From Clostridia bacterium (GTDB taxonomy: Bacteria > Bacillota > Clostridia > TANB77 > CAG-508): a stretch of 64,000 bases of DNA. The notes below the pieces were generated by a model. The model searched no databases. It worked only from the letters and a program-made list of their open reading frames with translations, and was not told the origin of the DNA. The position numbers and the translations under genes were made by a program. Location of the stretch: contig JAZNWN010000001.1 of NCBI GenBank assembly GCA_045593405.1, forward strand, positions 22,926 through 86,925. The letters are read 5' to 3'. This document shows, piece by piece, positions 4,958-64,000 of this stretch (position 1 is its first letter; every line of letters begins with the position of its first letter).

Positions 4958-6424
4958 ATGAAAATATATAACTCAATGACAAGACAAAAAGAAGAATTCA
5001 TCCCAATGGATGGAAACAACGTAAAAATGTATGCATGTGGAATAACAGTATACGACTTAAGTCATATAGGTCATGCAAGACAAGCGATAGTATACTCAAT
5101 GATAGCAGATTACCTTAAATATAGAGGATATAATGTAAAATATGTACGTAATTACACAGATGTAGATGATAAAATAATAGCAAGAGCAAATGCATTAGGA
5201 AAAAATGCATTAGACTTTTCTAAAGAGCAAATAGAAGAAACAGAAAAAGATATGGCAAACTTACATGTAAGTGATGCAGATATTTTTGCAAAAGCATCTG
5301 AAAGTATTGATATAATAATTGATTTTGTTCAAGAACTTATAAATAAGGGGCACGCATATGCAGCAGACAATGGAGATGTTTATTTTGATGTAAGAAGCTT
5401 CAAAGGATATGGAAAATTATCTAATAGAAATGTAGATGAAATGTTAAATGGAGTTCGTAAAGATGTAGAACCAGGAAAAAGAGATCCAATAGATTTCGCA
5501 CTTTGGAAAGGTGCAAAACCAGGTGAAATAGCATGGGAATCTCCATGGGGACAAGGAAGACCAGGATGGCATATCGAATGTTCAGCAATGATTTTAAACA
5601 ACCTAGGAGAAACAATAGATATTCATGGAGGTGGGAAAGATTTAGTATTCCCTCACCATGAAAACGAAGTTGCTCAAAGTGAAGCACTAACAGGAAAACC
5701 TTTAACAAAATATTGGTCACATTGTGGATTAATAAAAATAAATGGAGAAAAAATGAGTAAATCTCTAGGAAACTCATTAACAATAAGAGATGCACTAGAA
5801 AAACACAATTATGAAATAATAAAATATGTAATATTATCAAAACATTATACAACAGATATTGACTTATTAGATGGAGATTTTAACTTAGCAGAAAATCATA
5901 TGTATTATTTTTACACTACAATTGGGGAAATGTTAGAGTTTATCTCAAACAATAAAAATGAAGAAATAACAACATTCAGACAAGATGATATTTCTGAAAC
6001 AATAATACCAGAGTTTATAAAACATATGGATGATGATTTCAACACAGCAGCAGCACTTGCAAATTTACATGGAATATTTAAATATGTAAATAATGTAATG
6101 AAACAAACAAAACAAAAAGAAGAAACAGCAAATACTTTAGAAAAAATATTAAAAAATGTTAAAGAAGTATATGGAGTACTTGGGTTATTTGAACAAGAAC
6201 CAAAAGAATTTACTGCTAAATTAAAGAAAAAATATCTTGAAAAATTAGAAATAGATGAAGCTTATATTGAAGAACAAATAAATAAAAGAGCAGAAGCAAA
6301 GAAAAACAGAGATTTTGAACAAGCAGATAAAATAAGAAATGAGTTAGATGAAAAAGGAATAATTTTAATGGATTCAAAAGAAGGAACAACATGGAATGTA
6401 AAAGCTTTATTTACTTTAAATTAA
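4958..6424 (+). CDS. cysS: cysteine--tRNA ligase
   Basis: HIGH motif (SHIGHAR), KMSKS motif (KMSKSLGN), typical CysS N-terminus MKIYNSMTRQKEEF. RBS AGGAGG. Confidence 0.95.
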   Translation: MKIYNSMTRQKEEFIPMDGNNVKMYACGITVYDLSHIGHARQAIVYSMIADYLKYRGYNVKYVRNYTDVDDKIIARANALGKNALDFSKEQIEETEKDMANLHVSDADIFAKASESIDIIIDFVQELINKGHAYAADNGDVYFDVRSFKGYGKLSNRNVDEMLNGVRKDVEPGKRDPIDFALWKGAKPGEIAWESPWGQGRPGWHIECSAMILNNLGETIDIHGGGKDLVFPHHENEVAQSEALTGKPLTKYWSHCGLIKINGEKMSKSLGNSLTIRDALEKHNYEIIKYVILSKHYTTDIDLLDGDFNLAENHMYYFYTTIGEMLEFISNNKNEEITTFRQDDISETIIPEFIKHMDDDFNTAAALANLHGIFKYVNNVMKQTKQKEETANTLEKILKNVKEVYGVLGLFEQEPKEFTAKLKKKYLEKLEIDEAYIEEQINKRAEAKKNRDFEQADKIRNELDEKGIILMDSKEGTTWNVKALFTLN

Positions 6425-6427
6425 AAC

Positions 6428-6455
6428 AAAGGGTAGTTTATTTTAACTACCCTTA
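6428..6455 (+). terminator. hairpin terminator after cysS
   Basis: AAGGGTAGTT-TATTTT-AACTACCCTT stem-loop, then a T-containing tract. Confidence 0.6.
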
Positions 6456-6630
6456 TTATAATTCTATAAACAACTAGTTTTGATTCTAAAGAAATCTTAC
6501 TAAAATAAATAAGAAATTTATAAAAACTATTGAATAAAATTGTATTATAAATTATAATAAAAAATGATTTTAAACATCTTAATTTCAAAGATGTTACTAA
6601 AAATTTTATTTTAAAATATAGGAGGAAAAA

Positions 6631-7800
6631 ATGAGAAAAACAAAAGAACAAAACACAAACAAAGGTATAACATTAATAGCATTAGTAATCACAATAATAG
6701 TAATGTTAATACTAGTAGCAGTAACAATAACAGTAGCAGTAAATAGAGGATTATTTGAATATGCCTCAAGAGCAGCAAGAGAAACAAATAGTGCAATACA
6801 AGCAGAACAAACCCTTGCAAATGGAAGAGTAAAAATACAGGGTACATGGTATAATAACATGGGAGATTATATAGACGAAATACCATCAAACGACCAAGGA
6901 GATGGAATAATAAGAGGTCCTTGGATAGATAATGGAAATAAAACATATACACATGCTAAAACAAAATTAACAGTAAATATAGGAGACTATGTAAATTATG
7001 AATGTCCAGATCTTGAAGATAGTTATGGAGAAACATATGAAGTTGAATGGAGAGTTCTAGGTGTAGAAAATGGGCAATTACAATTGTTATCAAATGATAT
7101 AGCTGATGACTCTGGATTTCGCTTACAAGGGAAAGATGGATATATTAATGGAGTAACTTATTTAGATGAAATATGTGAAAAATATATAGATGGAGAAATA
7201 ATCATAGATGCAAGAAGTATAAAAATAGAAGATATAAATAAAGTAACAGGATATATTCCAGATGAAAGTACTAAATGCACATTAACATTGCAATATGATG
7301 ATGAGTATGGAGATTCATATTTATTTGTATCCGGAGAACCTAATTATATGGATTATAGCTTTGTAGATATTGATGGTACAAGATTAGTAACAGAAGAAGA
7401 ATTTAATAATACAGAAGATAAAACAGGAATAGCAAAAGAAATAATTGTAGAAGATAATTTTTATTCTTATACTGCTTCTCAAGTTGGATTGGTTCCTGGT
7501 AGTGTTGAATATGATATGCTTTTTGATGATTTGGGTTTATATAATAATTGCTATCATTTGGCTTCACCCTATTTCTCTGTTATAGACTCTAGCTATTCTT
7601 ATGGCGGATCTGGTTATGGTTACTTCAGAGTATACAGTGATTATATTGAGGGACAAAGTTTTTGGATTACTAATGAAGGATATGATTCTTATGATATAGA
7701 AATGCCAGTTAGAGCTGTTGCAACATTATCTTCAGAAGTAGTTTTAAACCCAGTACAAGGAAAAACAAATGAATATAATCCAACTTTAAGCTCTAATTAA
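6631..7800 (+). CDS. prepilin-type N-terminal domain protein (type IV pilin/pseudopilin-like) with large unknown C-terminal domain
   Basis: N-terminus MRKTKEQNTNKG-ITLIALVITIIVMLIL resembles the class III signal peptide G|FTLIE plus hydrophobic helix. Position +5 is Ala rather than Glu. Confidence 0.5.
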   Translation: MRKTKEQNTNKGITLIALVITIIVMLILVAVTITVAVNRGLFEYASRAARETNSAIQAEQTLANGRVKIQGTWYNNMGDYIDEIPSNDQGDGIIRGPWIDNGNKTYTHAKTKLTVNIGDYVNYECPDLEDSYGETYEVEWRVLGVENGQLQLLSNDIADDSGFRLQGKDGYINGVTYLDEICEKYIDGEIIIDARSIKIEDINKVTGYIPDESTKCTLTLQYDDEYGDSYLFVSGEPNYMDYSFVDIDGTRLVTEEEFNNTEDKTGIAKEIIVEDNFYSYTASQVGLVPGSVEYDMLFDDLGLYNNCYHLASPYFSVIDSSYSYGGSGYGYFRVYSDYIEGQSFWITNEGYDSYDIEMPVRAVATLSSEVVLNPVQGKTNEYNPTLSSN

Positions 7801-7814
7801 CTTATAAATAATAA

Positions 7815-7850
7815 AAAAAGTAAGGTTATAACCTTACTTTTTTTATTATT
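7815..7850 (+). terminator. rho-independent terminator
   Basis: AGTAAGGTT-ATAA-CCTTACT followed by TTTTTTTATT. Confidence 0.8.
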
Positions 7851-8072
7851 TATAAGTATAAAGTTTAACTAAAAACTTTTTATTAAAGTAAATTAATAAT
7901 CATGAGCATTTTAATAAAGTATTTTTTCTTATTAATTTTCTTTATTTTAAAAATTATTTATGATATAATTCAAAAATACGATTAAAAGAAAAGAACCAAA
8001 TAAATGTAATTTAATCAGAAATAATTCATAAAGTAATTATATGATTTAAAATATTAAATTTGGAGGATAAGA

Positions 8073-11000
8073 ATGTTACAAATTAAAAATATTTCAAAAC
8101 AATATAAAACTGGAGATTTAGTTCAGAATGCTTTAAATGATGTAAGTTTGAATCTTAGAGATAATGAATTTGTATCAATTTTAGGACCATCTGGGTCAGG
8201 TAAAACTACACTACTTAACATTATAGGTGGATTGGACCGATATGATAAAGGAGATTTAATTATCAATAATGTTTCAACAAAACATTATAAAGATAGAGAT
8301 TGGGATTCCTACCGTAATCATACAATAGGATTTGTTTTTCAAAGTTACAATTTAATACCACATCAAACAGTTTTAGCAAATGTTGAATTAGCATTAACAA
8401 TAAGTGGTATATCAAAAAAGGAAAGAAAAAGAAGAGCACTAGAGGTATTAGAAAAAGTAGGTTTAAAAGATCAAGCTCATAAAAAACCAAATCAAATGTC
8501 TGGAGGTCAAATGCAAAGGGTTGCAATTGCAAGAGCCCTGGTAAATAATCCAGACATTTTATTAGCAGATGAGCCTACTGGTGCATTAGATACAGAAACT
8601 AGTGTACAAGTTATGGAATTATTAAAGCAAGTTGCTAATGATCGACTTGTAATTATGGTTACACATAATCCAGAACTTGCTGAAGAATATTCAACAAGAA
8701 TTGTAAAATTAAGAGATGGAAAAATAATAGGAGATACAAATCCTTTTAATCCAGATATTAAAAACTTAAAAAAGCCAGAATATAAAAATTTAGGAAAATC
8801 TTCAATGTCAATATTTACAGCATTGTCCTTAAGTTTAAATAATTTACTTACTAAAAAAGGTCGTACAATTTTAACATCTTTTGCAGGTTCAATAGGAATT
8901 ATTGGTATTGCATTAATTTTATCTTTGTCAACAGGTTTTCAAAATTATATAGATAAAATTCAAGAAGATACATTAACTTCTTACCCATTAACAATTACAG
9001 CAGAAACAGCAGATACAACATCAATGCTTCTTTCAATGGTATCAGAAAGCGAAGAAGAAGTAAAAGAGGGAAATGTTAAAGAACAACAACATATTGCTAA
9101 TATGTTTTCTAAAATAGGAACAAATGACTTAAGAACATTTAAATCTTACCTAGAAGAAAACACTAAAGAAGTAGACGGAATGGTATCATTAGTACAGTAT
9201 AATTATAGTGTAAGTCCATTAATTTATACAAAATATACTGAAAATAAGATTACTAGGCTTAATCCTAGCACAATGCTTTCAGCAATGAGTGGGGGTAGTA
9301 CAGAAATGATGTCTACCATGGGTGTTTCTATATCAGTTTTTAATGAGATGGTAGACGATAGACAAATGCTAGAGTCACAATATAAAGTTCTTCAAGGAAC
9401 ATGGCCAGAAAATTTTGATGAAGCAGTACTTATTTTGCCTGAAGAAAATAGCATATCAGATTTGCTACTTTATAGTTTGGGTTTACGTGATAGTAAAGAA
9501 TTAGAAAGTATGATATCTAATATTATGGAAGGCAAAGAAGCCCAAAATACTAGTAGTCCACTTGAATTTACGTATGAAGAATTAATGAATATACCATTAA
9601 AATTATTAAACGCGACAGATACTTATAAATATAATGAAAAATACCAAGTATATGAAGATATGACCCAAGATGAAGAATTTATGAATGATGTATACGAAAA
9701 TGCAATAGATTTAAAAATAGTTGGTATTATATGTCCTGATAGCTCAAATGGTGCAAGTCTAATGTCAGGAGTTGGATATACAAAAGAGTTGACGGAATAT
9801 ATTATAAATCAAGCTTCAGAATCAGAGATTGTAAGAAAACAATTAGCAAATGAAGATATAAATGTTTTTAGTAATAAACGTTTTGATGATGAAAGTAATG
9901 AGTCGACAATAGATTTTGATGATTTAGTTACTATTGATACTGAAATGTTATCTTCAGCTTTTGGTGGGAATATTAGTGAAGAAGATATATCTAATATGAC
10001 TGAAGGCTATATGAATGAAATATCTTTAGCAATAACAACAGATACAAGTAAAGCTCAAAACACATTTAATAATACTTTAGTTACTATAACTACAAATATG
10101 CTACGAGATTATATAACTAACAACCAAGTAGCAGGTGTTGCAACAATAACTTTAAATGATGTAGAAACAGTTGTAAATGAGTATATGGCTTCAGAAGCTA
10201 GTAAAGAGTTATTAGCAAAATTAGAAAGTGAATATCTAATTCCGCAAGATACGTTTTCATCAATGTATTCAGAATTTATAAAAGGGTTTTTAAATCAATA
10301 TATTACTATGATGGCACAAGACAAAGAAAAACCAAGTGCATTTTTAGTAGCTGATGCAGTTGAAGGAATGGTAACAGCATTTAGCCAGCAAGAAATGGTA
10401 CTTGAAGCATCAAGAACAATATCTGCAAAAATGACAGAAGCTACCATGCAAAAAACAATACTTTCAAAAGTTGGAGAATTAACAGGAAAACTAATGCAAA
10501 ATATGGCAAGTGCGTTTAATGTAGATGAGAGTAAAATTGCTTCAGCATTCCAATTTAATTTAGATGAAGAAGAATTACAAAGACTATTTCAAGCAATGTC
10601 ATCTTCAAATACTGTAAAAAATGCAAGTTCAAATTTAATATCACTAGGATATCAAGACATAAATGAACCAACTTCAATGGAATTTTACTTTAAAAATTTT
10701 GACTCAAAAGAGTTATTCTTAGATTTCTTAGAAGATTACAACAATAAAATGGAAGCGGAAGATGATGAAAAGGTAATAAAATATACAGATATTACGGGAA
10801 TTTTAATGTCATCTGTAAAAGTAATTGTAGATAGTGTAAGTTATGTTTTGATTGCATTTGTAAGTATTTCATTAATAGTATCATCAATAATGATAGGAAT
10901 TATAACTTATATATCAGTTTTAGAACGTACAAAGGAGATAGGAGTTTTAAGAGCAATAGGTGCATCAAAGAAAAACATATCATCAATTTTTAATGCAGAA

Positions 11001-52797: not shown

Positions 52798-53679
52798 ATG
52801 AAAAAACAAATTGAACTTTTCTTAGATTTTATAAAAAATGAAAAAAAATTATCAGATAATACTTTTCAATCTTATAAAAGAGATATTTTACAATTTCAAG
52901 ATTATATCAATATAAATAATATAAATTATGATGATATAAATGAAGGAAATGTTAAAGATTATTTAGCTTATTTAAGTGATTTAAATAAAAAAGCAACAAC
53001 AATTTCTAGACATTTAGCATCAATTAGATTATTTTATCAATATTTGTTAAAATTTCATAAAGTACAAGCGGATCCTACTGCAAATGTACAGGCTCCAAAA
53101 ATAGATAAAAAAGCTCCTAGCATATTAACTTCTGAAGAAGTTACACTTCTTTTAAATCAACCAAAAAATGTTGATTTAAAAGGAATTAGAGATAAGGCAA
53201 TGTTAGAATTTGCATATGCAACAGGTATGCGTGTTACTGAAATAATATCTTTAAATATTGAAGATGTAAATTTAGAAGAAGGAGTTGTAAATTGTAAAGC
53301 AAGAACAAAAACAAGAGCAATTCCATTAGGCAAGATATCATTAAATGCACTTAAAGAATATGTAGCGAATGCAAGAGATATATTAATAAAAGACGATAAT
53401 GAGAAAGCTTTATTTGTTAATATAAATGGAAAAAGATTAACTAGACAAGGAGTATGGAAAATAATAAAATTCTATAAAGAACAGGCTAACATAACAAAAG
53501 AAATAACACCACATGTTTTAAGACACTCATTTGCAACACATTTATTACAAAATGGTGCAGACCTAAAATCTATTCAAACAATGCTTGGGCATTCAGATAT
53601 ATCTTCAACTCAAGTATATATGCAATTTCAGGATGAAAGTTTAAAGAATATATATAGAAAGGCACATCCAAGAGCATAA
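52798..53679 (+). CDS. xerD: site-specific tyrosine recombinase XerD
   Basis: Catalytic motifs RDKAMLEFAYATGMRVTE, HVLRHSFATHLL and LGHSDISSTQVY. Confidence 0.9.
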   Translation: MKKQIELFLDFIKNEKKLSDNTFQSYKRDILQFQDYININNINYDDINEGNVKDYLAYLSDLNKKATTISRHLASIRLFYQYLLKFHKVQADPTANVQAPKIDKKAPSILTSEEVTLLLNQPKNVDLKGIRDKAMLEFAYATGMRVTEIISLNIEDVNLEEGVVNCKARTKTRAIPLGKISLNALKEYVANARDILIKDDNEKALFVNINGKRLTRQGVWKIIKFYKEQANITKEITPHVLRHSFATHLLQNGADLKSIQTMLGHSDISSTQVYMQFQDESLKNIYRKAHPRA

Positions 53680-53752
53680 TAAATGAAATAAAAACCTAAG
53701 ATACTAAAATTAATTAGTATTTTAGGTTTTTTTAATTATTTTAAAAAAAATA

Positions 53753-53781
53753 TTGACAAAGAACGAACAAACGTTTATAAT
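53753..53781 (+). promoter_or_regulatory. consensus sigma-A promoter (TTGACA-N17-TATAAT) for the LysM gene
   Basis: Perfect hexamers and spacing read directly. Confidence 0.7.
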
Positions 53782-53822
53782 GTATTTACAACAAATAAAT
53801 GTTCGCACAAAGGAGGCTAATT

Positions 53823-54119
53823 ATGAAAATAAAAAATATAAAAAAATTTATTAGAAGTATATTCTTAATATCAGGAATTATATTTATATTATCTTTAATA
53901 ATGGTTAAATCAACTTTATCATATACTGATACTGAATATAAATTAATATATGTAAATTCAGGAGATACTTTATGGAGTATAGCAAGTGATTTACAGGAAA
54001 ATAATTTATATTATGAAGGAAAAGATATTAGATATATAATAGGCGACTTAAAAGAAGTTAATAAATTAAATGATAGTACAGTATATGTTAATCAAGAATT
54101 ACAAATTCCAATTATATGA
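53823..54119 (+). CDS. LysM domain-containing small membrane-anchored protein
   Basis: N-terminal TM and C-terminal LysM (YVNSGDTLWSIASDL...VNQELQIP). Start at ATG 53823 after an AAGGAGG RBS. Confidence 0.8.
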   Translation: MKIKNIKKFIRSIFLISGIIFILSLIMVKSTLSYTDTEYKLIYVNSGDTLWSIASDLQENNLYYEGKDIRYIIGDLKEVNKLNDSTVYVNQELQIPII

Positions 54120-54181: not shown

Positions 54182-55144
54182 TTATAAATTAGCTAATGGA
54201 TTACTTTCTACAGCATTTCTTACTTGAACATTATCTACATGAGTATAAATTTCGGTTGTAGAAATACTTTCGTGTCCCAATAATTCTTGCAGAGCTCTTA
54301 TATCAACATTACCATATTGATACATTAATGTTGCTGCAGTATGTCTTAGTTTATGGACTGAATATTTGTTTATATCTAAACCAGCTTTAAGTAATTCTTT
54401 TCTTATAATACTTTGAACTGTTCTATTACTAATTCGCTCTTTACGTTCACTTAAAAATAAGGCATCTTTAGAATCATATTTTATAGAGACTTTAGGTCTA
54501 CATTCTAAATAATCATTAATTGCATTTATACAAGCTTTATTTAAGTAAATTGTTCGTTCTTTATTTCCTTTACCAATAACATTAAGTTTACATTCTGAAA
54601 AATTGATATTACTGATATTAATACCTACAAGTTCAGACAAACGCATGCCACAATTTAAAAATAAAGTTGTTATTGCAAAATCTCTTTTATTATTTCTATT
54701 ATTCTCATCTTGAGAAACATCTAAAAGTTTTTTACTTTCATCTAAGCTTAGGTATTTAGGAATACGTTTTCCTAGCTTTGGTGTTTCTAAATATTGCGCA
54801 GGATTATTTTCAATCAGTTTTGCTTTCTTTGCTAGATATGTAAAAAATACTTTAATACTAGATACTTTTCGAGCCCTAGTAGTTGGTTTACTATTTAATG
54901 TAGTTGCCATATATGCAATGTAACTGTGAATGTCTTCTAAGGAAATTTTTTTAATTTCATTAATAGTCATATTTGAAATATCAATATCCTTAAAATCGGA
55001 TTTATTATTACTTTTAATAAACTTTAAAAAGTTGGCAATATCATAATTATATTCTTTTACAGTATTAGGTGATTTATTTAAAATAGTTATGTTATAATCT
55101 AGAAATGAATTTAAAAAATCTGGATTATTATTTCTACTAATCAT
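54182..55144 (-). CDS. tyrosine-type recombinase/integrase (XerC-like)
   Basis: C-terminal HKLRHTAATLMYQ and LGHESISTTEIYTHV. Start at the ATG giving MISRNNNPDFL. Convergent with xerD across the LysM gene. Confidence 0.85.
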   Translation of the reverse strand: MISRNNNPDFLNSFLDYNITILNKSPNTVKEYNYDIANFLKFIKSNNKSDFKDIDISNMTINEIKKISLEDIHSYIAYMATTLNSKPTTRARKVSSIKVFFTYLAKKAKLIENNPAQYLETPKLGKRIPKYLSLDESKKLLDVSQDENNRNNKRDFAITTLFLNCGMRLSELVGINISNINFSECKLNVIGKGNKERTIYLNKACINAINDYLECRPKVSIKYDSKDALFLSERKERISNRTVQSIIRKELLKAGLDINKYSVHKLRHTAATLMYQYGNVDIRALQELLGHESISTTEIYTHVDNVQVRNAVESNPLANL

Positions 55145-55260
55145 AGAATCACAACCTCTCATTTTCATTTTTAAATTTATAATAATTATATAACAAAACT
55201 ATTGCAAAAGTCATCTAATTTAGTGTAAAATATTAGAAATTTAAAAAGGAGGATAAAAAA

Positions 55261-56793: not shown

Positions 56794-57774
56794 ATGAAGG
56801 ATAATATACGTCCGGAAACAATGAATAGAATAAATACAAATGAATCAGCAGAATTATTTATTGAAGAACAAATAAATATAATTCGTAAACAGGTTGGAGA
56901 TAAAAAGGTTTTATTAGCACTTTCGGGAGGTGTTGATTCATCAGTTGTTGCTGCATTATTAATAAAGGCTATTGGAAAACAACTTGTGTGTGTACATGTT
57001 AATCATGGACTTTTAAGAAAAGGTGAACCAGAGCAAGTTGTTGAGGTTTTTAAAAATCAACTGGGTGCAAATTTAATTTATGTTGATGCAGTTGATCGAT
57101 TTTTAGATAAACTTGCAGGAATAGCAGATTCAGAGCAAAAGCGTAAAATAATAGGTGCTGAATTTATAAGAGTATTTGAAGAAGAAGCAAGAAAATTAGA
57201 TGGAATAGAATTTCTTGCACAAGGTACAATCTACCCAGACATATTAGAAAGTCATGGTGTAAAAGCGCATCATAATGTAGGTGGATTGCCAGAAGATTTA
57301 CAGTTTTCTCTTATAGAACCAATAAAATTATTGTTTAAAGATGAAGTAAGAATTGTTGGAAAAGCTTTAGGATTACCAGATTGTATGGTATATCGTCAAC
57401 CATTCCCAGGTCCAGGACTTGGAGTTAGATGTCTTGGTGCAATTACAAGAGAAAGATTAGAAGCTGTACGTGAATCTGATGCAATTCTTAGAGAAGAATT
57501 TGCAAAAAACGGATTAGAAGGAAGGGTTTGGCAATATTTTACAGCTGTACCAGATTTTAAATCAGTAGGAGTTTTAAACAATCAAAGAACCTTCGCATAT
57601 CCAGTAATAATAAGAGCAGTAGATACAGTTGACGCTATGACAGCAACAGTTCATAATATCCCTTTTCAACTGTTGCAGCATATAACAAACAGAATTACTT
57701 CTGAAATTCCCAATGTAAATAGAGTATTATATGATTTGACTCCAAAACCAACAGGAACTATTGAGTGGGAATAG
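56794..57774 (+). CDS. guaA: GMP synthase ATP-pyrophosphatase subunit (GuaA C-terminal domains only, no glutamine amidotransferase domain)
   Basis: PP-loop [12 protein letters not shown] and C-terminal dimerisation domain ending KPTGTIEWE. Its own GGAGGA RBS. The protein begins at the inter-domain linker of canonical GuaA. Confidence 0.8.
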
Positions 57775-57807
57775 AAATACAAAAAAAATAATAAGATTTA
57801 AAAATAC

Positions 57808-57845
57808 AACCCTCAGTTTCAGTTGCAACTGAGGGTTATATTTAT
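57808..57845. terminator. bidirectional terminator
   Basis: AACCCTCAGTT-TCAGTTGCA-ACTGAGGGTT followed by ATATTTATTTTTT. Confidence 0.8.
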
Positions 57846-57848
57846 TTT

Positions 57849-57974
57849 TTATGATAATAGGAACATTAGCATAAAAAATAGTGCTATTAGGAAGGATAGT
57901 CCTACCATTGCGAGAAATTCGGGCAGTTTTTTTGTAAAGAAAATCTTTACGAGTTGTTTTCTTGTATAGAACAT
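57849..57974 (-). CDS. small hydrophobic peptide (41 aa)
   Basis: AGGAGA RBS. Encodes MFYTRKQLVKIFFTKKLPEFLAMVGLSFLIALFFMLMFLLS. Not in ORF track. Confidence 0.35.
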   Translation of the reverse strand: MFYTRKQLVKIFFTKKLPEFLAMVGLSFLIALFFMLMFLLS

Positions 57975-58146
57975 TTTATTTCTCCTTTATAATTATTCTT
58001 GCGAGAATTATAATAATATTATATCATATTTTATTAAAATAATCAAATTTATTAGAAACGTATATTTAAAGCTTGAAATTTGACAATAAAATTATTTAAT
58101 AGTATAATTATAATATAAAATTAAAGCAAGAAATGAGGTAATTGTT

Positions 58147-58692
58147 ATGGATTTAAAAAATGAAGCAACTGCTAAATATACAAAATATAGTACGACAATT
58201 GATATAATATTTGATACCCAGTTAGGTGATGCTTATGATATGAGATATGAATTAAAAGATGTTTTAACTGCATATAAACATTTGCAAGAAAAAATTGAAA
58301 AAGACAAGGAATTAACTCAAGAATATAAAGATGAATTAAAGAAAAGAATAGAAGAAAAAACTGAGAAAGCAAAAAACAGAGAAGAAGAAATAAAAAAGGC
58401 AGAGGAAAAATATTCACAACAACAATATATTACGTTAATAAATGCAAAAGAAAATTATAGAAGAAATATGAGATTAAGAATGGATCCATCTTCTTCAAAA
58501 TTACGTACAATGATAGAACATAAAGGATATTATATTTTTTTCAACGAGGAACAAATTGAAGCAATTTACGAAGGTCGTATAAATCAAGTGGATTTTGAAG
58601 AAATGGGTAAAGAATATCCTGTTATTTTTAAAGAATTGGAAGAAGCAATAAATAAAGCAAAAAATGTTGGGCAAAGAGAAGAACAAGAATAA
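58147..58692 (+). CDS. hypothetical Lys/Glu-rich coiled-coil protein
   Basis: First of three tightly linked genes of unknown function. GAGGT RBS. Confidence 0.6.
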   Translation: MDLKNEATAKYTKYSTTIDIIFDTQLGDAYDMRYELKDVLTAYKHLQEKIEKDKELTQEYKDELKKRIEEKTEKAKNREEEIKKAEEKYSQQQYITLINAKENYRRNMRLRMDPSSSKLRTMIEHKGYYIFFNEEQIEAIYEGRINQVDFEEMGKEYPVIFKELEEAINKAKNVGQREEQE

Positions 58693-58716
58693 TATAAATT
58701 ATTTTATGGAAGGAAG

Positions 58717-59388
58717 GTGTATATTATGGAATCGACATTACAAAAAATACAAGCACATCATCATTTAAAATCATTTGAAGAAACAGTTATTGAATTATAT
58801 AGTAAAGTAGAAGTAGTGAAATTTGAACAATCAGAGTTTATAAGTACATATAAACAGTATTCTTACTTAAAGCAAGAATATAATAAGGCAATAGATAAAT
58901 CAAGTACACCAATATATAAAATTGATTCTAAAGAAGAAAAGAAAGAAAAAAAGAAGCAAAGAAAAGAAGGAAAAAAATCTGCAAAAGATTTGCTAAAAGA
59001 ACTTAAATCAATAGAGCAAATCTTAAATCCTATGATGTCACAATTTGATTTAGCGGAACTAGGTGGAATTGAAGGAGTTAAATTAATATTACAAAACGCA
59101 GAAGGGTACGACAGAGAAAAAGCTAAAGAACTTGAAGGTTTGCGAAGAAGAGTTGAATTTCATGAAGAACATCCTGAAATAAATATAGTTGGATTTCCTG
59201 ATAAAGATAAAGAGATATTAGAAACTACTACTACAGGAATTGATAAAGTTGAAAGAGAATATCTAACAAATGTACTTAATAAAGCTTTAACAGAAACGTC
59301 AGCAGATAATGCTAATAAGGCTCAGGGCATAGAACAGTTAGGATTAAATCCAGAACATATTAACGAAGGAGAAACAAAAGATGATTAG
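58717..59388 (+). CDS. hypothetical acidic protein with KEKKKQRKEGKK stretch
   Basis: Start at either ATG 58717 or ATG 58726. No family recognised. Confidence 0.55.
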   Translation: MYIMESTLQKIQAHHHLKSFEETVIELYSKVEVVKFEQSEFISTYKQYSYLKQEYNKAIDKSSTPIYKIDSKEEKKEKKKQRKEGKKSAKDLLKELKSIEQILNPMMSQFDLAELGGIEGVKLILQNAEGYDREKAKELEGLRRRVEFHEEHPEINIVGFPDKDKEILETTTTGIDKVEREYLTNVLNKALTETSADNANKAQGIEQLGLNPEHINEGETKDD

Positions 59389-59845
59389 TAAAGCTTATGC
59401 AAGGGCTTATACAGAAGTATTAGAAATAATTAAATATTTTCCAGAAGAAGAATATGCTAAAATACCTACAGAAAAAATTGAGTTTTATAAAAAAAATATG
59501 GACAAAGATTATATTTTTACAATTAATCCAGAAATTGACTTATCAAAGCAAAATATTTCTTTAGAAGCAAATGCTATCATAGTTAATTTATTTAGAGATT
59601 ATTTAGCAACTGAAGAACAAAAAATAATAATAAAAGAAATATTAGATTTAAATCAAAAAAAAGTAGAACAAGAAAAAAGAGAAATATATAATCCAGATAA
59701 TATATTTAAAAAGGTAAATAAAAACGCAGAAAGAACTCATATTGAAATACCTGATAATACTAATACAACTACACTAGTTGAATATAAAGTATCATTTTTT
59801 ACAAAGCTTAAAGAGTTTATATTCAAAATATTACATATAAATTAA
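59381..59845 (+). CDS. hypothetical protein
   Basis: ATGATTAG overlap with the upstream stop (translational coupling). Followed by a terminator at 59861-59890. Confidence 0.55.
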   Translation: MISKAYARAYTEVLEIIKYFPEEEYAKIPTEKIEFYKKNMDKDYIFTINPEIDLSKQNISLEANAIIVNLFRDYLATEEQKIIIKEILDLNQKKVEQEKREIYNPDNIFKKVNKNAERTHIEIPDNTNTTTLVEYKVSFFTKLKEFIFKILHIN

Positions 59846-59860
59846 ACAAATAGTTTATTG

Positions 59861-59890
59861 GAGCTAAGAAATTAGCTCTTTTTTGATTAT
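59861..59890 (+). terminator. rho-independent terminator
   Basis: GAGCTAA-GAAA-TTAGCTC followed by TTTTTTG. Confidence 0.8.
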
Positions 59891-60117
59891 TGCTGAAAAT
59901 CAAGCAGAGTAGGAGAGAGGAGCAGTTTTGAAGAATTAAAGATTTTTTTAAAATAATAAATATAATTTCAAAACTAAACTAATTATACAAAAATCAAAAA
60001 TAAAATCATAAAGATAAAATATAAAATTAATATAAAAGTTTTTATTAAATTAAAATTTTTAAATTTTGTGCAAAGTTTTAAATTTATAAAAATTTTCAAA
60101 ATAAAATATTTTAATTA

Positions 60118-60160
60118 TTGAACGCGTTAAAATCGTTTTTAAGACATTTTAATATTAAAG
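60118..60160. repeat. iteron-like repeat copy 1 (ACGCGTTAAAATCGTTTTTAAGACATTTTA)
   Basis: Shares the core GAATCG-TTTTAAG-NN-ATTTTA with copies 2 and 3. Lies in a 1-kb ORF-free AT-rich region. Confidence 0.7.
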
Positions 60161-60282
60161 TCAACAAGTTAATCGTTTATAAATTGCAGCTAAAAATAAC
60201 AATTATATATAATATTAGTAAAAACTTGTAAAAATGCTGATTTTTATAGACATTCAAAAAAACACAAAAAAGTGCCTAAAAA

Positions 60283-60325
60283 ACGACGCACGAGAATCGA
60301 TTTTAAGCCATTTTAAAAAAAGAGG
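60283..60325. repeat. iteron-like repeat copy 2 (ACGACGCACGAGAATCGATTTTAAGCCATTTTA)
   Basis: Direct repeat of copy 1. Confidence 0.7.
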
Positions 60326-60476
60326 CATATAGTTACTTACCTTGATTTTTGGCTAATTATTGACATATAAGGGTTTGATAGATTTTTAAGAAAATTTTAT
60401 AGATAATAATATAAATTGTAATTAAAAATTTTTGAAATTTAAAATTTATATAAAGATTATAAAATTAGTTAAAATC

Positions 60477-60520
60477 ATGACGCATCAGAATCCGTTTTAA
60501 GCGATTTTATTTAAAAAGTA
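60477..60520. repeat. iteron-like repeat copy 3 (ATGACGCATCAGAATCCGTTTTAAGCGATTTTA)
   Basis: Direct repeat of copies 1 and 2. Confidence 0.7.
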
Positions 60521-60866
60521 ATAAAGTTACATTAATAAGAATATAAGGCTAAACACTTGAAAGTGCTAAAAATAGCGAGATAGAGGTTCTTTTGAAGAAA
60601 AGCATATTTTGTCCTATACTCTTTTGCGCAAAACCTTGATAATAATAACCCCCCTTATAAATAACCTATTCCATTATGCACAAAACTTACCTAATAATAA
60701 CCCACTCTCAGTAAAAATATTCAAAATTTACTTCCCTAATTAAAATATTAATTCTCAATTTTCCATTTATAATTTAAAAGATATAGTTATTGAAATAATA
60801 TCTAGCATAAAAATTAATTGTAATAATAATCTTAATTATTTTTCATATCTCCAAGAGGAGGTAAAT

Positions 60867-61667
60867 ATGAAAAGTACAAAAATTATTGCGATTGCAAATC
60901 AAAAGGGTGGAGTTGGTAAAACAACAACTACACTCTCTATTGGAGTAGCCCTTGCAAAAGAGGGCAAAAAAGTATTGTTGATAGATGCAGATCCACAAGG
61001 AAATTTAACAACTTCTTTAGGATACTATCAACAAGAAGATATGCCAATAACATTGGCAGACTTAATGTATGCAGAAATTATGGATAAGGAAATAAAAATA
61101 CATGAAGCCATTTTGCATCATGAAGAAAAAATCGACCTTATTCCATCTGATATAAGTCTTTCTGCTATAGAATTATCATTAGGAAATGCTATGAGCAGAG
61201 AGTTTATATTAAGAAATTGTTTAAACAAGATAAAAGATGAGTATGATTATATTTTAATTGATTGTATGCCATCTTTAGGATTAATTCCTATAAATTGTTT
61301 AGCTTGTAGCAATGAAATAATTATTCCAGTTCAAAGTCAGTATTTAGCAATGAGAGGAATGACATATTTATTTGAAACTGTTTCAAAAGTTAAAAGGACA
61401 ATAAATCCAGATTTAAGAATTAAAGGGATTTTATTGACTTTAGTAGATAGAAGAGCAAATCTTTCAAAGAATGTCAGACAAGAATTGGAAAATAATTATG
61501 GTAAATATGTAAAAATATATGAAACTGAAATACCTTTAGCTATAAAAACTGCTGAAGCATCTATTAAAGGAAAAAGCATTTTCGAATATGATAAAAAAGG
61601 AACTGTTGCAAACGCTTATGAGAATTTAGTGGAGGAGGTTTTAGAAGATGAAAAACAAAGCATTTAA
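60867..61667 (+). CDS. ParA/Soj family partition ATPase (small type)
   Basis: Deviant Walker A KGGVGKTTTT, 266 aa. AGGAGG RBS. Confidence 0.9.
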   Translation: MKSTKIIAIANQKGGVGKTTTTLSIGVALAKEGKKVLLIDADPQGNLTTSLGYYQQEDMPITLADLMYAEIMDKEIKIHEAILHHEEKIDLIPSDISLSAIELSLGNAMSREFILRNCLNKIKDEYDYILIDCMPSLGLIPINCLACSNEIIIPVQSQYLAMRGMTYLFETVSKVKRTINPDLRIKGILLTLVDRRANLSKNVRQELENNYGKYVKIYETEIPLAIKTAEASIKGKSIFEYDKKGTVANAYENLVEEVLEDEKQSI

Positions 61668-62598
61668 GATGAACTTGCCTACATTAGATAGTTTATTTAC
61701 AACACAAGAAGAAAGAGACAATCCTAAAATATTACAAGTAACTGAACTTCCAATAAATATAATAAAAGATTTTCCGAATCATCCATTTAAAGTTGTAGAT
61801 GATGAATACATGGACGATATGGTCGAAAGCGTTAAAGTTAGTGGAGTAATAATGCCTGTAATAGTAAGAAAAGAAGTTGATGGCAGTTATTGTATGATAT
61901 CTGGACATAGAAGAAAACACGCAGCAACTAGAGCAGGATTAGAAAAAATCCCTAGTATAGTTATGAAATTAACAGATGATGAAGCGACACTTTTGATGGT
62001 AGATACAAATATAAATCAAAGGTTAAGTTTACTTGCATCAGAGAGAGCCTTTGCTTATAAAATGAAACTAGATGCAATAAAACATCAAGGAAAGAAAGTA
62101 GAAGAAACTTATCGCCCACTGGTCGAGAAGTTAGAAAAAATACTTTCAGCAGATCTTGTTGGCCAAGAGGTTGGTGCAAGTGCTAGAACTATTCAAAGAT
62201 ATGTAAGATTAACAGAGTTAATTCCTGAACTCTTGGAATTGGCTGATAAAGAAAAAGATGGAATGGCATTAAGACCAGCAGTTGAAATTTCTTATATTAG
62301 CAAAGAAAATCAAAAGTTAATATACGACAGTTTTAAATATAATGAAGCAACAGCTACTTTAAGTCAGGCTCAATTGTTAAGGAAATTAGATGAATCTAAC
62401 GAATTGACAATTGAAAAAATTGAAGAAATAATGCAACAGGAAAAACCAAATCAAAAAGAGCAGTTTAAAACTTCTTATGATAAAATTAGACACTATTTTC
62501 CTAAAAATTATTCAAATGAACAAATAGATAATAAAATTATGGAATTGTTAGAAATTTTTTATCAAGATTGGAAGCGAAAAGCAGCAAAAGTAAACTAA
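61648..62598 (+). CDS. ParB-like partition protein (ParB/Srx N-terminal domain)
   Basis: ISGHRRKHAATRAGL (GxRR box) and an HTH region. Overlaps the parA stop. Confidence 0.8.
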   Translation: MKNKAFKMNLPTLDSLFTTQEERDNPKILQVTELPINIIKDFPNHPFKVVDDEYMDDMVESVKVSGVIMPVIVRKEVDGSYCMISGHRRKHAATRAGLEKIPSIVMKLTDDEATLLMVDTNINQRLSLLASERAFAYKMKLDAIKHQGKKVEETYRPLVEKLEKILSADLVGQEVGASARTIQRYVRLTELIPELLELADKEKDGMALRPAVEISYISKENQKLIYDSFKYNEATATLSQAQLLRKLDESNELTIEKIEEIMQQEKPNQKEQFKTSYDKIRHYFPKNYSNEQIDNKIMELLEIFYQDWKRKAAKVN

Positions 62599-62699
62599 TT
62601 TATACATAATAGTCAAGTGTATAAATTATCAAAAATTTGTATATTTACACATTAATAAGCCCTTAGTGGCTTATTTTTTATGGAGGTGATTTATTATAT

Positions 62700-63440
62700 G
62701 TGAATGAAGAAAATAAACTAGGATATTATGCAATAATACCTTCTACTGTATTATTTAACAAAGATTTAAAAGCAAATGAAAAGCTTTTATATGCTGTTAT
62801 AACGGTATTAGCAAATAAAGAAGGATACTGTTATGCATCAAATAATTATTTAGCTGATTTATTTAATTCTAAACCACATACAATATCTAATTGGATATCA
62901 CATCTTAATAAATTAAATTTTGTATATGTAGAATTAGTAAGAAACAATAAAAATGAAATAATACAAAGAAGAATTTATATAAATGACATACCCTATGTTA
63001 CAAAAATAACATACCCCTATTCTATGAAAATGACAGAGGGCATGTCGCAAAAACGACAAGATAATAATATAAATAAAAAGATAGATAGATTTTTTATTTA
63101 TATTATAAAAAAAGAAAAGGAAAATCCTGAAAAAATGACAAAAGATGAAGATATAGGTTTTAAGGATTTGCTAGAAAAGTACGAGTTGAATTATACAGAA
63201 GAACTTATAAATATCTTTGCTGAAGAAAATATAGAGAAATTAAAAATTATAATCTATGCTTTAAAAGATATTTATATTAGCACAAGAAGAAGCCTTATTA
63301 CAAAGTTGACAAGAGATGAATTGATATTCATTTATGATAAATGTAGAACTAAAGAAAGTGAATATAGAAATACAACAAATGAAATCAATAATTTTTATGA
63401 ATATTATTACACAAGTTTGATTAAAAAGTTAGAAAGCTAA
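62700..63440 (+). CDS. HTH domain replication-initiator-like protein (plasmid/phage Rep N-terminal domain type)
   Basis: N-terminal winged-helix pattern YYAIIPSTVLFNKDLKANEKLLYAVITVLANKEGYCYASNNYLADLF typical of Firmicute plasmid/phage Rep or DnaD-like initiators. GTG start after a GGAGGTGA RBS. Confidence 0.5.
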   Translation: MNEENKLGYYAIIPSTVLFNKDLKANEKLLYAVITVLANKEGYCYASNNYLADLFNSKPHTISNWISHLNKLNFVYVELVRNNKNEIIQRRIYINDIPYVTKITYPYSMKMTEGMSQKRQDNNINKKIDRFFIYIIKKEKENPEKMTKDEDIGFKDLLEKYELNYTEELINIFAEENIEKLKIIIYALKDIYISTRRSLITKLTRDELIFIYDKCRTKESEYRNTTNEINNFYEYYYTSLIKKLES

Positions 63441-63476
63441 ATGTTTTTATTTTTTTATTCAAAGGACAGGAGGAAT

Positions 63477-63635
63477 ATGATACCGACTTATGATATAGAA
63501 AACTTAACAGGAGGACTAGATAGTGTATTTCAAAATGTTATGAGAATAGGTTTTACAGCTACTATAGTTCTTTTAACAATATGGATGTTATTAAGTCTAT
63601 TAATATGGTTATTTCGGAGCCAGGAAGAAATCTGA
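63477..63635 (+). CDS. small membrane protein (52 aa)
   Basis: GGAGGAAT RBS. Single TM (TATIVLLTIWMLLSLLIWLF). Confidence 0.45.
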   Translation: MIPTYDIENLTGGLDSVFQNVMRIGFTATIVLLTIWMLLSLLIWLFRSQEEI

Positions 63636-63796
63636 AAAAGCAATAAAGTTTGGGATAAGTAATTCAATAATAACTTTAATATTAATTATTATTATATTAG
63701 CAGTTCCAATACTGCTTAATATGTTTTAATTGAGATAAAGAAAAGTGTTCATACCATAACCAAAAACAATAAAAAAATCAAGGAGGGTTATGAGAT

Positions 63797-64000
63797 ATGC
63801 AAAAAAATAATTTAAAGAATATATTTTATAAAATAAAAAATAAAATTTGGATATTACCAACTACTTTAATGTTAATGCCAGCTAAAGTTTTTGCTGCAGG
63901 TGGAAGTATTAGTACAGCAGAGGTCAACCAAGCTACAGAAAATGTTAAAAATGCAATTATAAAACTTGCAATGCCAATAGGTGGAATATTAGTGTTTGTA
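63797..64000 (+). CDS. TrbC/VirB2-like conjugative pilin-like protein, 3-prime truncated at window edge
   Basis: Signal peptide ending AKVFAAGG, then a hydrophobic segment. AAGGAGGG RBS. Confidence 0.4.
   Translation, partial: MQKNNLKNIFYKIKNKIWILPTTLMLMPAKVFAAGGSISTAEVNQATENVKNAIIKLAMPIGGILVFV

Follow-up and report, generated by a model that had tools for sequence, protein, structure and literature searches.

The ORF-free, AT-rich kilobase at 59846-60866 of the window (the whole 64,000-nt stretch of DNA analyzed here, to which all positions refer) is probably a conserved non-coding module that ends in a Xer/dif-like site carrying an inserted ParA-ParB-Rep element, rather than a plasmid replication origin. 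The module is a member of a family with a conserved anatomy. Its relatives share a junction immediately after the central region of the recombination core, and some of them form tandem arrays. With moderate confidence, we read the module as the XerC-side flank of a dif-like core; a ParA-ParB-Rep element, inserted in the manner of integrative elements that exploit Xer (IMEX), would begin on its left with the sequence TAATAATAACC.

The non-coding stretch and its neighboring genes

ORFs of at least 60 aa are absent from 59846-60866, in agreement with the preliminary description of this DNA. Just one ORF of at least 40 aa lies wholly inside it (44 aa, 60609-60743); a second, on the minus strand (51 aa, 60843-60998), covers the final 24 nt of the stretch and the beginning of the ParA gene. 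The AT-richness reported for the region is likewise real, with a GC content of 0.23 at 60001-61000, the most AT-rich kilobase in the vicinity, vs about 0.27-0.28 for the 64-kb window. A terminator scan placed an intrinsic-terminator-like hairpin on the plus strand at the end of the upstream 154-aa ORF (59860-59879, an 8-bp stem followed by TTTTTT).

The genes 3′ of the stretch, all on the plus strand, match Pfam and PHROG families as the preliminary description had named them. They encode a ParA ATPase (60867-61667; Pfam AAA_31, E = 5e-61), a ParB-like protein (61648-62598; Pfam ParB_N, E = 3e-19; PHROG 4715, E = 1e-46) and a 246-aa, replication-initiator-like HTH_36 protein (62700-63440; Pfam HTH_36; PHROG 270 and 19658, "replication initiation protein", E = 2e-16 and 5e-16). 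The ParB gene had been called divergent; it is co-directional with the ParA gene and overlaps it by 20 nt. The VirB2-like pilin corresponds to a hydrophobic ORF of 64 aa without a Pfam match, which speaks neither for nor against that label. Together these matches support assigning the genes right of the junction to an inserted mobile element, as its putative module for partition and replication. Of the earlier proposal of an integrated plasmid or ICE module, the part that concerns these plasmid- or phage-like genes therefore stands, and the part that made the 1-kb stretch their iteron origin does not.

An exact look-up of the ParB returned a 1.3-kb contig as the sole match. BLAST searches against plasmid and phage collections, in near and distant modes, gave one 47-nt match, which lies within the ParA coding sequence and is to an Acinetobacter plasmid ATPase gene. 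We found no relevant paper in a literature search for the invariant strings of the module, and no circular contigs by terminal overlap.

A family of conserved non-coding modules

With a 23-nt degenerate pattern we found at least 120 metagenome contigs that contain the module, its repeats and their spacing included; mis-joins at repeats can occur in such assemblies. In blastn comparisons with the window module, 113 of the 120 pattern-found loci match, as do 118 of 132 loci overall. Genes for par and rep functions are absent near most of these loci; relatives of ParA/ParB(/Rep) are adjacent in about 6 of 125. The window module is most similar to rho-adjacent modules lacking par genes (L023, L016, L065), whereas the ParA-proximal 100-150 nt are conserved with the ParA loci L066 and L002 instead. 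The par/rep genes and the repeats thus have separate histories.

The module spans about 59904-60650 in the window (about 0.75 kb) and up to about 1 kb in relatives. On the plus strand its parts are, in order, a purine block, an AT-rich stretch, the repeat units, one or two hairpins, a CCTAY block and the terminal TTTGCRCAAAA-CTTTGA. Homology between loci begins at the purine-rich 5′ boundary block GCAGAGTAGGAGAGAGGAGCAG (59904-59925, plus strand), variants of which, such as GAGTAGGGAATAGGGGAATAGG, occur in 48 loci. It is followed by a very AT-rich stretch (59926-60113) in which Tandem Repeats Finder detects A/T tracts with a period of 10-13 nt. Within this stretch lies an inverted copy of the core arm, the half-site TTTTGTGCAAA (60064-60074), which is conserved in relatives. 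Beyond the repeat units, a degenerate copy of the terminal hairpin (CTTTT/AAAAG) with a T-rich tail occupies 60589-60611 on the plus strand, and the pyrimidine CCTAY block (60613-60622, plus strand), conserved in 76 non-redundant loci, directly precedes the recombination core.

Two further roles for the boundary blocks were considered and set aside. Correlated variants in the 5′ purine block and the CCTAY block suggest long-range pairing between the two, and they fit co-evolving inverted protein sites equally well. A KOPS- or SRS-like role of the purine block was suggested by 7-mers that are fully skewed toward the core, as are many purine-rich words.

The repeat units

The direct repeats of the preliminary description are present in three copies on the plus strand (60114-60172, 60278-60336 and 60472-60530). 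They are 59-nt units spaced 164 and 194 nt apart and do not form short, closely spaced iterons. Copy 2 contains the near-invariant core GACGCACGAGAATCGATTTTAAG. The core pattern AATCNNTTTTAAGNNATTTTA matches the 64 kb only at 60131, 60295 and 60489, with 0 matches expected from 100 shuffles, and the 22-mer ACGCACGAGAATCGATTTTAAG is identical in the first five loci compared (the window, L003, L005, L007 and L011). Across the family there are one to three copies per locus, always on one strand, with the spacing quantized at 164/173 and 193/81 nt; spacings of 164 and 193-194 nt are common to about 20 of 30 three-copy loci. The repeat core is nearly invariant across units with unrelated cargo, many of them without a Rep, a conservation that is partly by construction because the loci were ascertained through the repeat core.

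Phased A-tracts lie 5′ of the repeat-unit copies, and the center of the repeat core is partly palindromic, up to CTTAAAATCGATTTTAAG. Because of these phased bends, the palindromic center and the position on the XerC side, we favor a reading of the three repeats as bent, candidate protein-binding DNA sites that would be accessory to a Xer reaction or to the upkeep of dif after insertions.

Several other interpretations of the repeats were tried and rejected. A small palindrome directly preceding each repeat (AACGCGTT, GAAGCTTC) resembled, in six copies, a hairpin with co-variation, a resemblance that was lost in a wider alignment. A stem around the repeat core (AACGC...GCGTT) and a bidirectional terminator at the core both proved inconsistent when variants were checked by eye.

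Copies of the repeat core are present in 36 viral contigs as well, in many cases inside lysis modules, and they can face either way. Endolysin-adjacent copies in both orientations had suggested a prophage att core, a reading that does not fit the copies between holin and endolysin genes. The Xer reading of the module leaves the presence of the repeat core in phage lysis modules unexplained.

A dif-like core at the 3′ end of the module

The module always terminates in TTTGCRCAAAA-CTTTGA, and inter-locus homology breaks off directly 3′ of CTTTGA. We located 104 core sites in 84 loci, 63 of them full and 41 with divergent right arms. A full core is an inverted 11-6-11 site, TTTGCACAAAA CTTTGA TTTTGTGCAAT, whose arms match at 10 of 11 positions when inverted. 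The divergent right arms include TAATACAAACC, TGCCGCGACAC, TACGGGGCTAT and the TAATAATAACC of the window, whose two sites are among the 41. The full-core consensus is identical to E. coli dif at 17 of 28 positions (arms 7/11 and 8/11) and to B. subtilis dif at 14 of 28 (dif sequences from PMC3025954), a similarity that is weak on its own because random 28-mers of the same AT-rich loci match the arms equally well at a rate of 6e-5 per position.

In the window, the left (XerC-type) arm TTTGCGCAAAA and the central region CCTTGA occupy 60623-60639 on the plus strand and match the family consensus TTTGCACAAAA CTTTGA. Next to them is the divergent, class-B right arm TAATAATAACC (60640-60650, plus strand), with which the ParA-ParB-Rep element would begin. 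The pair of TAATAATAACCC repeats noted earlier is genuine and belongs to a longer 39-nt repeat (60613-60651 and 60665-60703, 77% identity); a 23-nt pattern for it has 2 matches in the window vs 0.01 expected. As the TAATAATAACCC motif is the arm beyond the recombination core, it would mark the left end of the ParA-ParB-Rep element. The second copy (60665-60703, plus strand) comprises a CCTAY block, TATGCACAAAA (60675-60685), CTTACC (60686-60691) and TAATAATAACC (60692-60702), and is read as a degenerate older junction. The left-arm/central pattern matches the window only at 60623-60639 and at 60677, and both sites consist of a left arm and central region alone, without a full core. In L058 the same TAATAATAACC arm occurs once, without duplication. 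An imperfect palindrome upstream of the ParA gene (GATATAGTTATTGAAATAATATC, 60780-60802), read from the sequence, may serve the inserted element as a par operator or centromere, and a near-identical copy lies 3′ of the same arm in L058.

Full cores at the GC-skew switch and tandem arrays

At full cores in relatives, mean GC skew switches from +0.199 in the 500 nt to the left to −0.234 in the 500 nt to the right (n = 58 loci). Among long loci, skew is negative on the right in 16 of 16 with a full core and stays positive in 3 of 3 with a divergent arm, the window among them. The window itself has a skew of +0.21 to the left and +0.19 to the right of 60640, with no flip. Gene orientation changes at the full core as well, from the plus strand on its left to the minus strand on its right (rho, ftsB, yabQ, yabP, aspartate kinase, prfB). 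The flips in skew and in gene orientation place the complete core of the relatives where the two replichores meet, an assignment to the terminus that rests on convergent long co-oriented blocks and not on a whole chromosome, since gene orientation alone can flip the skew.

Nineteen loci contain at least two co-oriented sites, e.g. L097 with three modules. Thirteen of these multi-site loci end in a full core, and all of their earlier sites bear divergent arms; the other six (among them L003, L078, L088 and L108) have divergent arms only. The divergent arms precede new cargo genes, and an arm can recur with its cargo, as in L088 and L123, where GCCGCGACAC precedes clusters c42-c44 and c25. The cargo consists mostly of plus-strand accessory genes, including two-component/ABC modules, ECF sigma/anti-sigma pairs, Fic, a PBP and small ORFs. 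A recombinase is often absent from the cassettes, and the module is also found in Rep-less cassettes of 2-5 kb. We rejected a filamentous-phage (inovirus) reading of the cassettes, as their cargo is ordinary accessory genes and both Zot and RCR Rep are absent.

Xer recombinases in the window and its relatives

A plus-strand xerD gene (52798-53679) lies 7 kb 5′ of the core; its product scores 343.9 bits against the NCBIfam XerD model TIGR02225 (cutoff 329.6). On the minus strand, 54182-55168 encodes a Xer-like tyrosine recombinase paralogue with Pfam Phage_integrase and SAM-like N domains, which scores 242.9 bits against the XerC model, under its cutoff of 335, and is also under the XerD cutoff. 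Against integron-integrase models the paralogue reaches 58-100 bits (cutoffs 265-435). As the canonical xerD is present beside the paralogue, two recombinases are likely to be involved.

Eight other loci have an orthologue of the Xer-like gene (62-86% identity) in the vicinity of the module, making 9 with the window. In six of them the gene is on the minus strand and starts 0.4-4.8 kb left of the copy-2 anchor, compared with 5.1 kb in the window. In L087 it is on the plus strand 7.2 kb to the left of the anchor, and in L033 it is 6.3 kb to the right, past rho. The orthologues adjoin the module in L093 and L060. In the window, cargo separates the Xer-like gene from the module, and the recombinase gene has no module adjacent to it.

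A model for the locus

Our model for the locus is as follows. In related genomes, tandem mobile units lie to the left of a complete core, each unit beginning with its divergent right arm and ending with its own module, left arm and central region, the pattern that IMEX leave behind. The core would be the chromosomal dif, acted on by XerD and the Xer-like paralogue. The ParA-ParB-Rep element of the window would begin at TAATAATAACC (60640) and run beyond 64000; the place of the window in such an array is assigned by analogy, because the window itself has neither a skew flip nor a full core. The module may act at the DNA level as an accessory region, like the accessory sequences of cer and psi, with the repeats helping to assemble or control the Xer synapse or to keep dif functional after an insertion. 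The plus-strand hairpin before the core could halt transcription that would otherwise enter it.

Alternative explanations

An ordinary tyrosine-integrase att site has a low but appreciable probability. Elements would then accrete at a hot spot between convergent gene blocks, and the module would be an attP arm unrelated to dimer resolution. Site-specific accretion is expected to give the tandem arrays and hybrid junctions that we observe, many loci have element-borne recombinase pairs together with a 108-aa ORF directly 5′ of the module, and the repeat core adjoins integrase genes in the minimal forms L164 and L120. The recombinases, however, are of Xer-type architecture without an arm-binding domain, and many cassettes lack a recombinase of their own. 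The 11-6-11 dif layout of the full core, the exact coincidence of this core with the skew flip in 58 loci of diverse lineages, and the linkage of xerD and a conserved chromosomal Xer-like gene likewise count against an unrelated att site.

It is improbable, in our estimate, that the module is a non-coding RNA gene or a set of tandem sRNA genes. In that case it would be transcribed on the plus strand, with the repeats as paralogous RNA domains, the hairpin as the terminator and the RNA gene itself as the integration target; tRNA and tmRNA genes serve as integration targets elsewhere. The terminal hairpin and the smaller one before it do co-vary, and in relatives the stability of the terminal hairpin is specific to the plus strand in 71 of 76 loci (Wilcoxon p = 8e-14), whereas the window's own copy is weak (z = −0.08). 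A sigma-70-like promoter (TTGAWA-16-TATAAT) between copies 2 and 3 is partly conserved and present in some loci, but a sigma-70 promoter scan projected on the alignment found none that is family-wide; the same scan gave a weak minus-strand promoter-like ATGCCT-17-TAAAAT. The cer site, with an RNA encoded inside a Xer site, is a precedent. Against an RNA, an Rfam scan of 57500-64000 returned no matches at E up to 1, and RNAalifold found weak covariation within the three repeat units on both strands. The phased A-tracts and palindromic core suggest recognition at the DNA level instead.

The preliminary description had proposed an iteron-type origin, in which the Rep-like HTH protein binds the repeats, melts the AT-rich DNA at 60000-60120 and replicates an excised element, with ParB perhaps using the region as a centromere. 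The periodic A/T tracts of the AT-rich stretch (10-13 nt), the non-randomness of the repeats and the replication-initiator-like protein and ParA/ParB directly 3′ all agree with this, and in a circular form the element's own module would again precede parA. We nevertheless regard it as very unlikely. Iterons are short direct repeats of about 17-22 bp, closely spaced in helical phase, and they co-vary with their Rep; the units here measure 59 nt and are spaced by 164-194 nt. The repeat core stays invariant while ParB falls to 43% identity: L005 has three repeats at 164/193 nt despite a ParB with just 43% identity to that of the window, and its homologous non-coding kilobase is placed differently relative to genes. 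Repeats as Rep- or ParB-binding sites are at odds with the family, since relatives of ParA and ParB lie downstream of the module in about six of the at least 120 loci that carry it (adjoining it in about 6 of more than 100). DnaA boxes are not enriched, with 18 found in the window vs 23.6 expected, and a recombination junction sits between the module and parA. The separate histories of the par/rep genes and the repeats, reflected in the grouping of the window module with par-less modules, thus argue against an iteron origin together with the repeat geometry, the invariance of the core in Rep-less units such as the 2-5 kb cassettes, and the lack of DnaA-box enrichment.

Polar, Ter-like fork barriers, in which co-oriented repeats would bind a terminator protein and stop forks past dif, are scarcely credible, for although one to three co-oriented copies lie directly left of the skew switch, mirror-image copies right of the core are nearly absent (2 loci only), copies occur in every inserted cassette and within phage lysis modules, and no terminator-protein gene was identified.

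Wider implications

More tentatively, the chromosomal site of dimer resolution in this Clostridium lineage could be a composite of about 1 kb, made of the repeat-bearing accessory module and an unconventional 28-bp core, that doubles as a cassette-capture platform served by XerD and the linked Xer-like paralogue. Module-bearing circles with a half-degenerate core would stack at the terminus, and carriage of the module would be obligatory because the module would restore a working dif after each insertion. If so, this composite dif would amount to integron-like gene acquisition run by the Xer machinery.

If the Xer reading is correct, the locus would be an undescribed and unusual site of dimer resolution and element capture at the replication terminus of gut Clostridium, and the range of Xer-exploiting elements would widen to gut Firmicutes. 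Plasmid-like par/rep elements, resistance-type two-component/ABC modules and toxin-antitoxin-like genes would all be stackable at the terminus, with consequences for the movement of accessory genes in gut Clostridium. In a large survey, dif prediction failed for Clostridium perfringens 13 and C. beijerinckii (Kono et al., PMC3025954); a dif-like core with a long accessory module would be a concrete candidate for dimer resolution in such clostridia. As a caution, this widespread 1-kb region should not be annotated as a plasmid origin.

Comparison with known systems

A dif site is about 28 bp long, with two inverted 11-bp arms about a center of 6-8 bp, lies at the GC-skew switch and is served by Xer recombinases. 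The 11-bp inverted arms, 6-bp center and GC-skew switch are found at the full cores of relatives, and the Xer genes are found in the window.

Among the closest parallels are IMEX such as TLC-phi, VGJ-phi, the gonococcal genetic island and EludIMEX-1, which also form tandem elements at a terminal dif-like site. In their attP sites the XerC arm and the central region are retained, and the XerD arm has diverged (PMC5357621). Our junctions likewise keep a XerC-type arm and central region beside a divergent XerD-side arm (41 sites), and many units are without a recombinase of their own. Unlike the known attP sites of about 28-150 bp, each unit here has a conserved module of up to about 1 kb beside the arm. 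The present units reside in low-GC Clostridium and carry ordinary accessory genes or ParA-ParB-Rep rather than filamentous-phage genes, and some have a Xer-like gene pair of their own.

The plasmid sites cer and psi are comparable in layout: next to the XerC arm of their core lies a long non-coding accessory sequence, which is needed for recombination and bound by accessory proteins. In cer this DNA is about 180 bp and also encodes a small RNA (PMC5357621). The present module is about four times longer (about 0.75 kb vs about 180 bp), contains one to three units of 165-195 nt, and sits at the terminus, either in the chromosome or on an element. The xerS gene adjoins difSL (PMC5357621), and a Xer-family gene is similarly linked to the presumed site here, 0.4-5 kb away and adjoining the module in basal loci; unlike in that system, a canonical xerD is also present and the central region is 6 nt, not 11.

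Iteron plasmid origins share with this window direct repeats by an AT-rich stretch near par and rep genes, and differ in repeat length and spacing, in the absence here of co-variation with Rep and in the occurrence of the repeats in Rep-less units. Integron arrays, finally, also consist of co-oriented cassettes that each end in a recombination element, beside a divergent tyrosine recombinase gene. In place of the structure-conserved attC hairpin, however, the cassettes here have a dif-like duplex core and a sequence-conserved module; no attI was identified, and the recombinase scores far below the integron-integrase cutoffs.

Repeat core in viral and prophage DNA

The 17-nt core of the 59-nt repeats (CGAGAATCGATTTTAAG) is present in 36 viral contigs of IMG/VR (handles L133-L166; for example L139, L150, L136, L142 and L164). 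In these contigs the sites lie between holin and endolysin genes, 3′ of endolysin or capsid genes, or 17 nt past a tyrosine recombinase gene; the orientation of the core relative to the neighbouring viral genes is variable. Isolated copies of the repeat core in metagenome loci adjoin prophage endolysin genes.

Genes and sites of the mobile segments

Directly 5′ of the module, some of the mobile units stacked beside the dif-like site carry two consecutive Xer-like recombinase genes together with a 108-aa ORF that has no family match (database loci L057, L059, L065, L089 and L112). Another cassette (locus L123, ~6100-8317; cluster c25) encodes a 738-aa protein built of ~19 tandem 27-aa repeats (KNKIEVTGSVF..AEEIEKIVEVC).

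An imperfect palindrome, GATATAGTTATTGAAATAATATC, is positioned ~65 nt 5′ of parA (60780-60802), and a near-identical copy is found in database locus L058, 3′ of the same TAATAATAGCC arm. The inserted element may use this palindrome as its par operator or its centromere. The ParA, ParB and HTH genes of the window are 98% identical to those of a 2.9-kb contig (L002, SUUK01000015.1), in which the 175 nt 5′ of parA are only 70% identical to the window. The contig is filed under an Alphaproteobacteria MAG, an assignment that is probably a binning error because its GC content is ~27%.

Chromosomal genes around the dif-like core

Comparison of the gene order around the dif-like core revealed that spoIIM is encoded on the plus strand to the left of the core in the window and in locus L028, whereas in locus L032 it is encoded on the minus strand to the right, as expected for inversions symmetric about a terminus. 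The guaA ORF of the window (56794-57774) encodes only 326 aa, versus 512 aa in L032. Its product covers positions 190-512 of the GMP synthase model, which is the C-terminal synthetase part alone, and has no glutamine amidotransferase part fused to it. The 370-nt gap past the guaA terminator holds a minus-strand ORF of 41 codons (57849-57974). Its predicted product is very hydrophobic and could be a small membrane peptide or a type I toxin, or the ORF could have arisen by chance alone.

The interval between xerD and the Xer-like gene (53740-54110) contains a gene for a YneA-like LysM cell-division suppressor. It is preceded by TTGACA...GAACGAACAAACGTTTATAAT; by comparison with the Firmicutes LexA box, this sequence resembles an SOS box (Cheo box) that overlaps the promoter.
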